A stretch of 64,000 nt of DNA from Escherichia phage Murica. Under the pieces are notes generated by a model. It saw only the letters and a program-made list of their open reading frames with translations, did no database searches and had not been told where the DNA came from. The stretch is from the sequence record NC_041871.1. One strand, 5' to 3'. Positions 6,326 through 44,098 of the stretch are shown here, piece by piece; position 1 is the first letter of the stretch, and each line of letters opens with the position of its first letter. The position numbers and the translations under genes are program-made.

Positions 6326-6796
6326 ATGAAACTTGATAAAAATGTTCAACGAAAAGCTTTCTTGGATATGATCGCATATTCGGAAGGCACAGATAATGGT
6401 AGGCAACCCACTAAGGATCGTGGATACGATGTCATAGTTGGTGGCAAGCTGTTTAGCGATTACAGCAAGCATCCAGGTGTGTACGTTAAGCTAAATGCTA
6501 AACTTACCTCCTCCGCTGCTGGTCGTTACCAGGTTTTGGAGAAGTTTGCTAAACACTACATGGAACAGTTAGGATTGCCAGATTTTGGCCCTGCCAGTCA
6601 GGACAAGATTGCGTTGCAACTGATCCGTGAGTGCAAGGCTCTCGCCGACATTGACGAAGGGCGTATCCACGAGGCTATCCATAAATGCCGTTCCCGCTGG
6701 GCTTCGTTACCTGGTGCTGGATATGGTCAGCATGAACAGAAGATCGAGAAGTTGATCGAGGTGTTTAAAAAGGCAGGCGGTGTTGTCCTTGATTGA
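6326..6796 (+). CDS. endolysin, lambda R-type lytic transglycosylase
   Basis: Near full-length similarity to lambda R as recalled (QRKAFLDM.AySEGTDNGRQ, GYDVIVGG.LF.DYS.HP, GAGRYQ, WASLPGAGYGQ). Confidence 0.9.
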   Translation: MKLDKNVQRKAFLDMIAYSEGTDNGRQPTKDRGYDVIVGGKLFSDYSKHPGVYVKLNAKLTSSAAGRYQVLEKFAKHYMEQLGLPDFGPASQDKIALQLIRECKALADIDEGRIHEAIHKCRSRWASLPGAGYGQHEQKIEKLIEVFKKAGGVVLD

Positions 6797-6859: not shown

Positions 6860-7066
6860 ATGAAAGATTTTCTGTTGGCAATTTTGTTCATGGCAGCATG
6901 TCTGGCCTGTGGTGTCGTGTTTGCAGGTGAAACAGCGTATCTTGTCGATGTATATCGGGACAATGGTAAACGTATTTGCCTTTATGAGACAAGTCAAGGT
7001 GAGCTCTACGAGCTTGTGAAACAAGGCGAGGCTGGATCTTGTCCTCGCACCCATTTCTTTGAATGA
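6860..7066 (+). CDS. small secreted protein, possible lipoprotein
   Basis: 68 aa; hydrophobic N-terminus LLAILFMAACLAC with lipobox-like MAAC; directly downstream of the endolysin. Confidence 0.4.
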   Translation: MKDFLLAILFMAACLACGVVFAGETAYLVDVYRDNGKRICLYETSQGELYELVKQGEAGSCPRTHFFE

Positions 7067-38262: not shown

Positions 38263-39739
38263 CACACAATTAGCTGCCCGGCTAAAGTGCTGGAGCACCT
38301 ACAATACATCTTTCAACTAAATTTCCCACCACCACAATCACTTACCTTCCACACATGACTGTTTGCTTGTTTAGTGAGCAGTCATGCCTTGACATTCTTG
38401 CCTATCCTGATAAAATTAAGTTCTTCTCTTTTCTTTTACCGAGTAATTCGGGTTTTCTGTTCTCTTCGGTTTGAAGGGGTATGGAGATACACCTGAGTGA
38501 ACATGGTGAACAACCGAACATTTGGCTATGGCATTAGCATGGCGAAGCGGACGGGTGACGAAAGAGGGGCCGGAGGACACCAGTCACTGCCATATGATAT
38601 ATGGGTGATAACCTGAAGAGTCTGAATAAGTGTTTAAGTACCAGTCAGAGGAAAAGGTGAATGGTAGCCGAAGGGGGAGGGGGGTTTCTTGTATCTTTAA
38701 TTTGTATATTATGTATACACTCGTAAACCAATCTCATCTGAATCTGTTTACCACACAAAGTAGATAGGGACAAATATCACCTATTAAACTTGAATTATTT
38801 ATAGAAAATACCACAACACCACTTAAGTCTTTGATTTTACACACAAATCCTACAGATATTCAACCTCTATATTTAACATATTCATAACATATTCCATACT
38901 CTACCTGTCTGATCAATTTACCCAACCACATCCTCCATATTTTCCCTGTCTGTACCACCCCTGCCCCGCCGGGAGTCCCGTCATATCTGGCTTTCCAGCA
39001 AATATCACACCCACAAATATCATTGCCTGAAGAGGGTTTCATCCCATAGTACATGCCTTACCTGAAGAGCGCTTCATACACCACGTAAATTTTTTAATTT
39101 ACCCCCCCTCCCCGCCGCCGGAGTGGTCGGCTTTTCCCACACAGGCCTGAAGAGTCAGCCAGAAATATCTGAACAGGTCCAGTTATACCACGATTTTGAC
39201 CTGACCGACAGGAGTGCTGCCAGGCGGACGGAATGGGAATACTTCTCATTCTTATAATAATTCTCAAATATCGAGGCAGTGAGGCAAATTAATAGGTGAG
39301 GCCGTTCACACAGTGGCACAACATTTGCAATCTATTTTGTGAGGGTGAATGAGAATACCTATCATTGTGAGAACTGTTATCATTACGGGCAATTTAACAT
39401 AATACCCATTATGCGCACCACTGGCGATCCATACAGGGATTGATAACATGAGTTACAGTTTACGCATATAACAATCATATTTCTTACTATTTGTGTGGGA
39501 TATAGTTAGCAGCCGATAGATTAGATATTGACCTGTGGACTTCCAACCGTCTAGACGTCTAAACGCCCACACAACAAGGATTATACATACATTACTGAAT
39601 GTAAACAGGGCCGCAAAAATGCTACCATACCAGATTGTAAATTTTTCATGCAGCACTTGACAAAGAGGAGAAAAACTTGTCTGACACAATATGACATACT
39701 GGGCACATTAAACACACTTTAGACTTAATTGACATGCCT

Positions 39740-39862
39740 GACTGTTTACGCTGTCACTATTCACGCTATTACTATTCACTCCCTTTACTGTTCACGCTCT
39801 TACTGTTTACATGCTTAATGGTTTACATGACCAATAGTTTACATAGCTAACTATTTACATGG
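39740..39862. repeat. array of eight tandem 15-17-bp iterons
   Basis: Head-to-tail units ending TT(T/C)AC(G/A/T) with 15-16-bp period (e.g. ctgtcactattcacg, ctattactattcact, ctcttactgtttacatg, ccaatagtttacatag). Confidence 0.75.
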
Positions 39863-39871
39863 AAATGATAA

Positions 39872-40153
39872 GCCATGCCATTCGTTTGCATGATAACTAT
39901 TAGCAAGTTAATAATCTTTCGCTGGCTATGCCAGGTGACCTTTGGTCACCCCTTCGGGTGTTTCTATGACATAATATAAAAGCAGGGCAACTATTAGAAG
40001 ATCTATAGTTGCCTTGCTTGTTATGTCATGATTAACTAAATACAAGGCAACTATGATCTGATTAATAGTTTGCAAACAAACTATCACGGGGGGTGATGGT
40101 TACTGCTTTTATATTATGTCGCGACTCCGTCGCGCCATGCCATTCGTTTGCAT
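39872..40153. repeat. 262-bp dyad-rich element bounded by exact 20-bp direct repeats
   Basis: GCCATGCCATTCGTTTGCAT at 39872-39891 and 40134-40153; internal inverted repeats GGTGACC-ttt-GGTCACC, GGCAACTAT..ATAGTTGCC, GACATAATATAAAAGCA / TGCTTTTATATTATGTC. Confidence 0.75.
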
Positions 40154-40765
40154 AGTTGCCTTATTGTTACAGATAAAATAATTGTATTGTTAATTATTTC
40201 TTATCTTTCTCTTAGTCATCTAATGATTCCAGTCAGTATAGTAATGTACAGTAAACATTAGACGACTAAAGATTTATATGCTTATAATAACTTACAGTGA
40301 CAATTTCGGACTGTTTACGAAAAATGTTGACACCTGAGCCGATTTATGTTATGCAGTTTACACGAATAATTATTTTATGCAGGTATTGACTATTCCGTTA
40401 TTCTATGGTCGGAATAAATACTTAGCAGTCTATAGAATGGTGACGCTACGTGAATTCTGGAATTTAGTGGCTATAGTTATACCCGATTTTTCACGTAGAA
40501 CACGCTTTTGTGGTTATGTAAGTGTATGACTTATAAAGATTTTTAGTTGTTGACAAGACACTGAAGATATGCATCAGGTTAAATTTTGTGCAATAGCTGC
40601 ATTACGTGCAATTTTGGAAGGAAAAACGTGTAAAAATGGCCCTGCTACCACACAATGAAAGATTATGCAATAGCTATTTTATATGTATGTTTGTACAGTG
40701 TGTGGGATTGATGGCTAGTCAATTATTCCACTTGCCAGGTGGGGACGTTTGTGGTAGGAGAAATA

Positions 40766-40798
40766 CAGACAAAAAGAAAGGGGCCTTTTAAAGCCCCT
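40766..40798 (-). terminator. intrinsic terminator for minus-strand gene 40817-41236
   Basis: Minus strand: AGGGGC-N8-GCCCCT followed by TTCTTTTTGTC. Confidence 0.7.
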
Positions 40799-40816
40799 GA
40801 TAGTTTAGTTAAGAAA

Positions 40817-42032: not shown

Positions 42033-42061
42033 ATGTTACCCCACCCCATGGCAGATGTCAA
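42033..42061 (-). promoter_or_regulatory. sigma70-type promoter TTGACA-17-TAACAT (minus strand)
   Basis: Upstream of gene 41706-41978; second candidate TTGACT-17-TATTCT at 42138-42166. Confidence 0.5.
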
Positions 42062-42196
42062 CGGTTTTTATAGTTCTTATATGACAGGCAGGCCTGGTGA
42101 TTGTCTCCCCCTGTTCCCAAGTGCCGCCCGTTTAATAAGAATAGCAAAAGGGGCCGAACAAGTCAACCCCAAAATCAGTACCAAAACACTTTTTAT

Positions 42197-42508
42197 TTAT
42201 ACGGTCCGGTCATTGGCCTTTGTCCAGGACCTGGCGATCCGTTTCCCAGTCACCTGGAACGGAGACTGCATTGTGTGTAATGAATCCAGCGTAAGGGAGG
42301 ACCGTTTACGGCGTATCTTCAGGATCGCCAATGTATTGTCCATCTCACGGCCAGGTCCTGGGCGGTATGGAGTGCCTCCAGCGTTAAGGTTGATGATCTC
42401 ATGTATTGAGATCCGGCGTTGTTTTGCTTCCGCATCTTTGAAGATAGCCAGCGGTGGCGCTATACGTTGCCGATACCAATCTAAAACGGTTGGCGTAATA
42501 GCGATCAT
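42197..42508 (-). CDS. hypothetical basic protein
   Basis: 103 aa; start overlaps upstream stop. Confidence 0.4.
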   Translation of the reverse strand: MIAITPTVLDWYRQRIAPPLAIFKDAEAKQRRISIHEIINLNAGGTPYRPGPGREMDNTLAILKIRRKRSSLTLDSLHTMQSPFQVTGKRIARSWTKANDRTV

Positions 42509-42696
42509 ATTTTACCCCCTATGTAGTCAGGTCGGTTTTTCTCTGTCATGCGCTTTAGCAATTCGTGCATGTTACTTATAGCTTGTAGTGTATCCTCTTC
42601 CAGGCTTGAATCAACATAATCAGGATCGTCTATGACCTTTCTATGATTATGATAACGCAGTACCGCCAATACCTTTCTAACTTGTTCAGTATTCAT
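42505..42696 (-). CDS. hypothetical protein
   Basis: 63-aa ORF. Confidence 0.35.
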   Translation of the reverse strand: MNTEQVRKVLAVLRYHNHRKVIDDPDYVDSSLEEDTLQAISNMHELLKRMTEKNRPDYIGGKI

Positions 42697-42712
42697 TTTA
42701 CATCTCCCTTAC

Positions 42713-43003
42713 TTATTGTTGGCGGTTTACGTAAGCTTTACCGTTTACCGTCATCGGCAAATCTTCCAGGTCTGGATCTTCCTTAAGGTCGCGAGCAAGT
42801 TCACCGCACCGGATACCCTCGAATCCGTAGTACTCTGTTGTACCGTCATTAAAAGTTTTAGTGGCAAGGCATAAGCGATAAGTAACCCCGATTCGATTGA
42901 CGGCATGAATATCCGTTAGATTAACCTCTTTTGCCAGCTCATTAGCCATTGCAGGCGCACTAAGTCCAACAACCAGGGCAACCACTGCGATCATCTTTTT
43001 CAT
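42713..43003 (-). CDS. secreted (periplasmic) small protein
   Basis: N-terminal signal peptide MKKMIAVVALVVGLSAPAMA with AxA cleavage site; two Cys in mature part. Confidence 0.5.
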   Translation of the reverse strand: MKKMIAVVALVVGLSAPAMANELAKEVNLTDIHAVNRIGVTYRLCLATKTFNDGTTEYYGFEGIRCGELARDLKEDPDLEDLPMTVNGKAYVNRQQ

Positions 43004-43094
43004 TGTGCCTATCCTCTTTCTGCTACGTTTAAGGCGGCGGTAACCGCCTGTTTATGATTTGTTGGTTAATTTTCGGGTATCGGTATAAATTAAA

Positions 43095-43310: not shown

Positions 43311-43501
43311 TTGCCAACCTCACCCGATACCGTTGGAAGACAAGATCATATTAGACATGGTTGCAATCAGGCCAATACCCAGGGCAATAATCAAGATCGC
43401 TGCATCGATTAATTTCTGTTTCATGGTGTTTATTCTCTTCTGTTAGTAACCTTATTCATGGGGCCGCTACCACAGCCCCAGGGTAAGGCGGCTATGTGCT
43501 T

Positions 43502-44070: not shown

Positions 44071-44098
44071 ATATTACAGTTTTATATGGTCATGTCAA
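44071..44098 (-). promoter_or_regulatory. sigma70-type promoter TTGACA-16-TAATAT (minus strand)
   Basis: Consensus -35; adjacent to A10T5 homopolymer tract 44107-44121. Confidence 0.5.

Follow-up and report, generated by a model that had tools for sequence, protein, structure and literature searches.

To our knowledge, only a small number of proteins through which virulent phages act in the periplasm have been characterized, examples being T4 Spackle, T4 RI, and the Llp and Cor lipoproteins. The examples that are understood govern superinfection, lysis timing, or receptor availability, all three of which shape the behavior of phage cocktails. The antiholin RI of T4, a protein of about 97 residues, combines an N-terminal export segment with a small periplasmic domain that binds the holin, a membrane protein; its export segment is an uncleaved, releasable SAR sequence, and the protein is helical. 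Imm of T4 is a very small, hydrophobic exclusion protein of the inner membrane. Spackle is the product of an early T4 gene, with a cleaved periplasmic signal and a mature protein of 75 residues that contains one disulfide (PMC7677548). It binds a basic surface of the gp5 tail lysozyme stoichiometrically and acts in superinfection exclusion together with membrane-located Imm, which is named as its cofactor (PMC7677548).

The 64,000-nucleotide stretch of DNA analyzed here (the window) is, by its nucleotide identity to sequenced genomes, an rV5-like Vequintavirus. Phages of the rV5 type (Vequintavirus and Phapecoctavirus) are among the commonest coliphage isolates, are candidates for therapy, and form part of the BASEL set, and nearly all of their small accessory genes are without known function. 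The 3 kb around the gene considered below are 99.7% identical to two unannotated records, "Campylobacter phage A147/A135," and 98 to 99% identical to the Escherichia phages Pr121LW, LL12, and isim, all of which are Vequintavirus, i.e., rV5-like myophages with genomes of ~137 kb. The closest records (GenBank MG065644 and MG065690) give Campylobacter jejuni as the host. They are rV5-like coliphage genomes with 99.7 to 100% identity to the window over the compared regions, and probably either the Campylobacter labels are wrong or the genomes are contaminants.

The gene in question (Table 1) encodes a protein of 96 amino acids. Its homologues are ORF171 of rV5, LL12_165 (CPT_LL12_165), and isim_6, which are syntenic in all three genomes and are all labeled as hypothetical proteins, and the window protein matches PHROG 9845 over residues 1 to 94 (E = 2.8e-60; profile of 94 positions). 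The gene is therefore already present in databases, as a hypothetical protein and as a PHROG. For 15 pairs from six lineages, one with dS of >1.5, dN/dS ranges from 0.10 to 0.26, values that mark the reading frame as a real gene under purifying selection. A word-indexed search returned 41 proteins (clusters at 90% identity), all from rV5-like phages, phAPEC8-like phages, or unnamed metagenome contigs, and with 39 full-length cluster representatives the window protein shares 77 to 99% identity. Four matches (representatives at 50% identity) came from an exhaustive HMM search among 1.84 billion proteins; all are rV5-like, and just one of them is a full-length divergent relative, encoded at the same position in rV5-like contigs. 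IMG/VR contributed only three loci, and the gene is carried by 171 phage records. By these searches, the family does not extend beyond Vequintavirus and Phapecoctavirus, and the phages that carry it infect E. coli and closely related enterobacteria.

The N terminus of the protein reads MKKMIAVVALVVGLSAPAMA, followed by NEL. It opens with MKK, which supplies two lysines, and continues with a hydrophobic core of 11 uncharged residues (Kyte-Doolittle means over 9 residues of up to 3.4), a Gly/Ser/Pro break, and alanines at positions -3 and -1 (A-M-A before N21). The sequence agrees with the rules for Sec export and cleavage by signal peptidase I: a positive n-region, an h-region within the range of 7 to 15 residues, small residues at -3 and -1, and neither a lipobox nor a further transmembrane segment. 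The mature part has no second hydrophobic segment (highest 19-residue hydropathy, 0.66). A lipobox is absent, as there is no cysteine in residues 1 to 44 and the cleavage region is SAPAMA before N21. When a rule-based scan was applied to all 348 window ORFs of at least 50 amino acids, with 20 shuffled windows as a control, three ORFs were signal-peptide-like, and only the gene studied here had a full AxA motif; the shuffled windows yielded one full-AxA ORF in total.

Comparison with relatives adds to this picture. The window protein has two A-x-A sites, after residue 18 (A-P-A) and after residue 20. Most relatives read A-P-V-M-A, so only the residue-20 site is conserved, and because they keep xMA before (N/K)E, signal peptidase I is predicted to cleave after A20 in preference to the A-P-A at residue 18. 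The signal peptide is conserved throughout the family, including in a lineage that is only ~57% identical, where the sequence has diverged and its character has been kept. In that lineage the c-region is less canonical (TSTCSMAAKE), and the cysteine at position 15 sits in T-S-T-C, which is not a lipobox. We consider it highly probable, from these sequence features, that the protein is exported by Sec to the periplasm.

Removal of the signal peptide would leave an acidic domain of 8.6 kDa (pI 4.8). Its two cysteines, C45 (42869-42871) and C66 (42806-42808), are kept in 18 of 19 and in all 19 aligned relatives, respectively, and both are also present in the divergent P0042. Two cysteines suit an oxidizing compartment, and a C45-C66 disulfide probably locks the mature domain. 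Of five AlphaFold2 models one was confident, with pLDDT of 85 to 93 over residues 21 to 90. It comprises strands at residues 24 to 35, 41 to 51, and 56 to 62, a helix at 66 to 75, and a strand at 84 to 86, with C45 in strand 2 and C66 at the N terminus of the helix. As modeled, the compact domain is too small and featureless for an enzyme and therefore most likely acts by stoichiometric binding of a partner. The initial annotation had described a phage-encoded periplasmic protein with a Sec signal peptide, an AxA site, and a 76-residue mature domain with two cysteines. The conservation of the signal peptide and of both cysteines across relatives agrees with that description, as does the assignment to an rV5-like Vequintavirus; the periplasmic location is very probable.

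Table 1. Features of the locus, in window coordinates.
Feature	Position	Strand	Basis or remark
CDS of the 96-aa exported protein	42713..43003	minus	ATG-initiated; ORF list and translation
Signal peptide (predicted), residues 1-20, MKKMIAVVALVVGLSAPAMA	42944..43003	minus	n-, h-, and c-region features and hydropathy
Mature domain (predicted), 76 aa	42716..42943	minus	predicted beta-beta-beta-alpha-beta topology
Ribosome-binding site AAGAGGA (Shine-Dalgarno GAGGA, 43012-43016)	43012..43018	minus	8 nt before the ATG
Hairpin AGGCGG-N6-CCGCCT	43032..43049	unstranded	~30 nt upstream of the start codon
Sigma-70-like promoter TTGACA-16-TAATAT (10/12 matches)	44071..44098	minus	consensus scan; corresponds to rV5 P174; predicted
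Terminator-like hairpin and T-run	42150..42170	minus	consensus scan; predicted
16-nt junction where the 44-aa ORF is missing	42697..42712	minus	downstream alignment and ORF extraction
Next gene, 63 aa, PHROG 9599, homologue of rV5 ORF169	42505..42696	minus	same predicted transcript

The initial annotation had also placed the gene in a monocistronic unit, which has to be revised. The next gene downstream starts 16 nt past the stop codon, with its own GGGAG, and overlaps the following gene of 103 amino acids (42197..42508). A consensus scan of the 91-nt upstream spacer found no promoter-like site, and the gene lies inside a predicted operon. The sigma-70-like site in Table 1, the nearest one upstream on this strand, is the probable start of this operon. 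Its probable end is the terminator-like hairpin, likewise the nearest of its kind, which comes after the 103-aa gene and before the following promoter-like site (42061..42033, rV5 P168). The two window sites are those published for rV5 as P174 (same sequence in Table S4) and P168; the rV5 paper has no terminator listed from t177 to t164 and puts ORF171 in a long unit of genes 10-1-238-164 (PMC3606486). With the promoter and terminator laid out in this way, the gene is predicted to be the fifth of about seven in a sigma-70 operon of small genes. The layout of sigma-70-promoter blocks makes early expression plausible; our literature search found no transcriptome for Vequintavirus or Phapecoctavirus. 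All ten flanking genes fall into PHROGs without known function, and the sole above-cutoff Pfam match among them is one DUF7249, so that the genomic context offers no functional clue. Two genes upstream of the ORF171 homologue, this predicted operon contains a 34-aa ORF with a single transmembrane segment (43320-43424, minus strand; PHROG 14631), which may be compared with the 46-aa gp173 of rV5, a "membrane protein"; one or more further envelope-directed microproteins are therefore part of the operon.

About 60 nt of upstream sequence, with the ribosome-binding site and the hairpin, travel with the gene. The ribosome-binding site is conserved in all aligned relatives. The position of the hairpin is also conserved, and in phAPEC8-like genomes the stem is GGGGCG/CGCCCC, a compensatory change, though the upstream gene there differs. 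A T-rich tail follows the hairpin on the plus (antisense) strand only, and it was called as terminator-like on that strand only. Its minimum free energy (-11.6 kcal/mol) is no better than that of shuffled sequences (z = -0.3), and Rfam gave no match within 37 to 46 kb of the window.

Downstream of the gene, the window departs from most of its relatives. We aligned the flanks of rV5, one IMG/VR contig, two phAPEC8-like genomes, and four metagenomic rV5-like contigs. Except in the clade of the window, the stop codon of the exported-protein gene is followed in all aligned loci by a very hydrophobic ORF of 44 codons, which starts 2 nt further on or overlaps the stop as ATGA. The rV5 copy is ORF170 (DQ832317, 108489..108623; PHROG 16005), which reads MKKIIITLGIVVAILALFPLMVRYVLISVILVVSDLVLYINSLF, and gp170 is listed in Table S3 of the rV5 paper as "membrane protein, 1 TMD" (PMC3606486). 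The small ORF is kept even where the adjoining exported protein is at its most divergent. A tblastn search located it in 98 phage records, and homologues are limited to rV5-like phages. In many genomes it has been left unannotated.

To gauge how widespread the loss is, a 141-nt probe across the window's junction was compared with phage records, of which 170 matched. The junction is contiguous in 10 of these (A147, A135, Pr121LW, isim, EI-SP-GF, C12, C14, JLBYU08, LL12, and MiataMamis); the other sampled records are longer at this point by ~127 nucleotides or align with just one of the probe's halves, and the 44-aa ORF follows the gene in about 94% of related phage records. On the strength of the junction and flank comparisons, the ancestral state is a two-gene cassette for an exported and a tiny membrane protein, from which the lineage of the window deleted the latter. 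The two genes are probably translationally coupled. The "widowed" copy in the window is still intact and, by dN/dS, is evolving conservatively.

Two other parts of the window deserve mention. The gene at 6326-6796 (plus strand) is an endolysin by PHROGs (phrog_90, E = 3e-56); a Pfam scan gave no family, and the rV5 paper assigns PF00959 to the homologue (PMC3606486). A 68-aa ORF at 6860-7066 (plus strand; PHROG 4641, rV5 gp90) has a signal- or lipobox-like N terminus, MKDFLLAILFMAACLACGVV, and two further cysteines; because it comes directly after the endolysin gene, it may encode a lysis accessory or spanin-like protein. The region from ~38300 to 40800, between converging gene blocks, has few ORFs and is the counterpart of a "non-coding" box in rV5 (104013-106618). 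It contains, especially at 39968-40169, iteron-like direct and inverted repeats (GCAGGGCAACTAT and ATAGTTGCC) and an 18-nt perfect inverted repeat, and may serve as an origin or in regulation.

Searches of family and structure databases yielded little beyond the PHROG. Pfam gave nothing above threshold for the 96-aa protein. We rejected DUF3761, which scored 14 bits (E = 0.07) against a gathering cutoff of 29, with a match that is limited to the signal peptide and the first strands and that reaches E < 1 in just 2 of 19 family members. PADLOC gave no match, and NCBIfam none beyond the signal peptide: a weak MerP match is limited to residues 1 to 21, and homology to MerP was rejected as signal-peptide likeness. 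The family profile found no PDB chain sequence, Spackle entries included, better than E = 0.5, and the matches at that value or worse are unrelated evasins. Fold searches showed no likeness to RI or to the lysozyme inhibitors Ivy, MliC, and PliC, and Spackle was also not among the matches. Neither by fold, which in that group is characteristically beta-rich with an inhibitory loop, nor by Pfam membership does the protein belong with the bacterial periplasmic lysozyme inhibitors (Ivy, MliC/PliC, PliG, or PliI). In the literature, we found neither this protein nor periplasmic accessory proteins named in phage accessory-gene screens. The rV5 paper leaves gp171 without annotation (PMC3606486), and the rV5 proteomics table, in which it carries no "MS evidence" label, does not mark it as part of the virion.

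The only match outside the family among predicted viral structures is a protein of 104 residues encoded by the podophage Lidtsur (Bonnellvirus; QBZ71517; Foldseek E = 2e-3, TM of 0.55 to 0.59). This protein (MK629528, 4001..4315) has a signal peptide, and in an independent model its elements follow the order predicted for the ORF171 protein, beta-beta-beta-alpha-beta, while its two cysteines fall at the same places in the structure. As in ORF171, one cysteine is in strand 2 and one at the N terminus of the helix, and there is a C-terminal "NG" strand; the gene, like the ORF171 homologue, is among small genes, and its block is the early region. Alignment of the two families by hhalign puts the cysteines in register. 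Sequence homology was nevertheless rejected at E values of 0.15 (full length) and 0.3 (mature part only), and on the models we regard the Lidtsur protein either as an analogue at the level of the fold or as a very distant relative. A shared cassette was rejected as well, as the 49-aa ORF downstream in Lidtsur, unlike ORF170, is not hydrophobic and does not encode a membrane protein. The Lidtsur protein belongs to a family found in Bonnellvirus phages of Escherichia, Kosakonia, and Pantoea, with two conserved cysteines.

What might such a protein do? Our tentative preference, with a probability of roughly 0.3, is superinfection exclusion that would work, by analogy, as T4 Spackle does with Imm. 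For this proposal we infer export, the disulfide, early timing, and the target alike. An ORF171-type protein would be exported by Sec, cleaved after Ala20, and released into the periplasm as a soluble acidic domain of 8.6 kDa, held by the C45-C66 disulfide, that binds its partner stoichiometrically. The ancestral partner would be the translationally coupled 44-aa inner-membrane protein ORF170. The exported protein would proof the envelope of the infected cell against further phages, its target being either a periplasm-exposed part of the incoming tail tip or ejection apparatus or a host component that this apparatus needs. A Spackle-type target is not evident in rV5, because no tail-associated lysozyme is annotated there, the annotated murein hydrolases being only gp2 (Hydrolase_2) and the endolysin gp89. 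Ten natural phages are without the membrane partner, so the pair, judged from these genomes, is not obligatory.

The same localization and small-binder features would serve a protein directed at the host. In a takeover of the host envelope or a counter-defense, it would bind and inhibit a periplasmic or inner-membrane-surface protein of the host to favor the current infection; a protease, an enzyme of peptidoglycan or glycan assembly, an envelope-stress sensor, and the periplasmic part of a membrane-embedded defense are the candidates, and we regard this as possible, if doubtful. The restriction of the family to phages of E. coli and close enterobacteria is consistent with it, as is the fact that Lidtsur, an unrelated podophage of the same hosts, encodes an exported early-region protein with the same topology and cysteine placement. 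This likeness is easier to derive from a shared host target than from a shared virion target. However, it is a fold-level likeness only (hhalign E of 0.15 to 0.3) in a simple fold, there is no PADLOC or other family match, and a candidate target was not identified. Control of lysis timing or of a murein hydrolase, by an antiholin-like or hydrolase-inhibiting protein that perhaps acts with the 44-aa membrane protein, seems unlikely to us. The pairing of a periplasmic protein with a very small membrane protein would fit, with a logic comparable to that of T4 RI or to the effect of Spackle on lysis inhibition; the protein is acidic against the basic gp89 (pI 9.3) and gp2 Hydrolase_2 (pI 10.0) of rV5, and the rV5 holin, gp129, has been assigned only by guess. 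Yet the gene is ~36 kb from the endolysin gene (6326..6796), on the opposite strand and among small accessory genes, the 44-aa ORF does not have the charged C terminus typical of holins, and the fold searches gave no likeness to RI, Ivy, MliC, or PliC.

A membrane-tethered form, whose N-terminal segment stays as an uncleaved signal anchor or a releasable SAR-like anchor and holds the domain at the outer face of the inner membrane, would make use of the 17-residue apolar stretch of residues 4 to 20 and of the less canonical c-region in the divergent lineage. It is quite improbable, as the strongly hydrophobic core is just 11 residues long, Gly, Ser, and Pro come next together with a textbook A-x-A, and the cleavage motif is conserved across the ORF171 family. 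We place last the masking of an outer-membrane receptor in the manner of the T5 Llp or Cor lipoproteins, which is the less likely of the two roles put forward in the initial annotation. The protein is an exported phage protein, and there are precedents for lytic phages that disable their receptor (PMC11990801 and PMC9586334). However, it has no lipobox or outer-membrane targeting feature, and the receptors reported for Vequintavirus, the NGR glycan and the LPS core (bioRxiv 10.64898/2026.04.02.716166; PMC11990801), are glycans rather than proteins accessible from the periplasm. A complete modification of abundant O-antigen glycans during lytic infection has been argued to seem futile (PMC11990801), an argument that may extend to other abundant surface glycans. 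With no lipobox and with the NGR glycan and LPS core sugars as receptors, masking is very unlikely; the other role in that annotation, interference with an envelope process, is possible.

We also entertain a broader and more speculative idea, which we think rather unlikely to hold: the ORF171 and Lidtsur proteins may be the founders of an unrecognized structural class of periplasmic effectors, of which the former, with ORF170, would be a two-component cassette in rV5-like phages that blocks some periplasmic step when other phages infect or disables a host function based in the envelope. The defining features of such a class could be a signal peptide and, after it, a beta3-alpha-beta domain in which a disulfide joins strand 2 to the helix cap. 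If it exists, the widowed variants would amount to a ready-made genetic dissection of the ORF171/ORF170 pair. As it stands, the gene product is a hypothetical protein of an ordinary kind for which a signal peptide is predicted, and the data point to no surprising mechanism. New here are the comparative support for export, the corrected transcription unit, the cassette and its loss, and the structural look-alike in a podophage. Being conserved and exported and having a membrane partner of its own, such a protein is a reasonable and cheap target for functional work, which the natural phages without the partner make easier.

The Llp and Cor proteins are, like the ORF171 protein, small and exported, and they protect the infected cell or the progeny by acting in the envelope (PMC9586334). 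They are lipoproteins anchored through a lipobox cysteine that block protein receptors such as FhuA, whereas the ORF171 protein has no lipobox and belongs to a glycan-binding phage group; with no lipobox cysteine at +1 of the mature protein, it was rejected as a lipoprotein of the Llp/Cor type. RI differs in its uncleaved SAR segment and helical structure from the ORF171 protein, which has a canonical A-x-A, a predicted mostly beta structure, and a context outside lysis. Spackle (gp61.3) resembles the ORF171 protein in small size, a cleaved periplasmic signal, a mature length of ~75 against 76 residues, two cysteines, and the lack of an enzymatic domain, and the basic surface that Spackle targets may be set beside the acidity of the ORF171 protein (pI 4.8). 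Membership in the Spackle family was rejected on both sequence homology (PDB profile search) and fold, as Spackle is an alpha-helical bundle whereas the ORF171 protein is predicted to be beta-beta-beta-alpha-beta. ORF170, with 44 amino acids and one predicted transmembrane domain, is confined to rV5-like phages and absent from the window. It is like Imm in being very small and hydrophobic and in accompanying a periplasmic factor, but it adjoins ORF171, whereas the Imm and Spackle genes are not adjacent in T4. Should the protein serve in exclusion or as a factor of the envelope, it would be a structurally unrelated variant of a known phage function.
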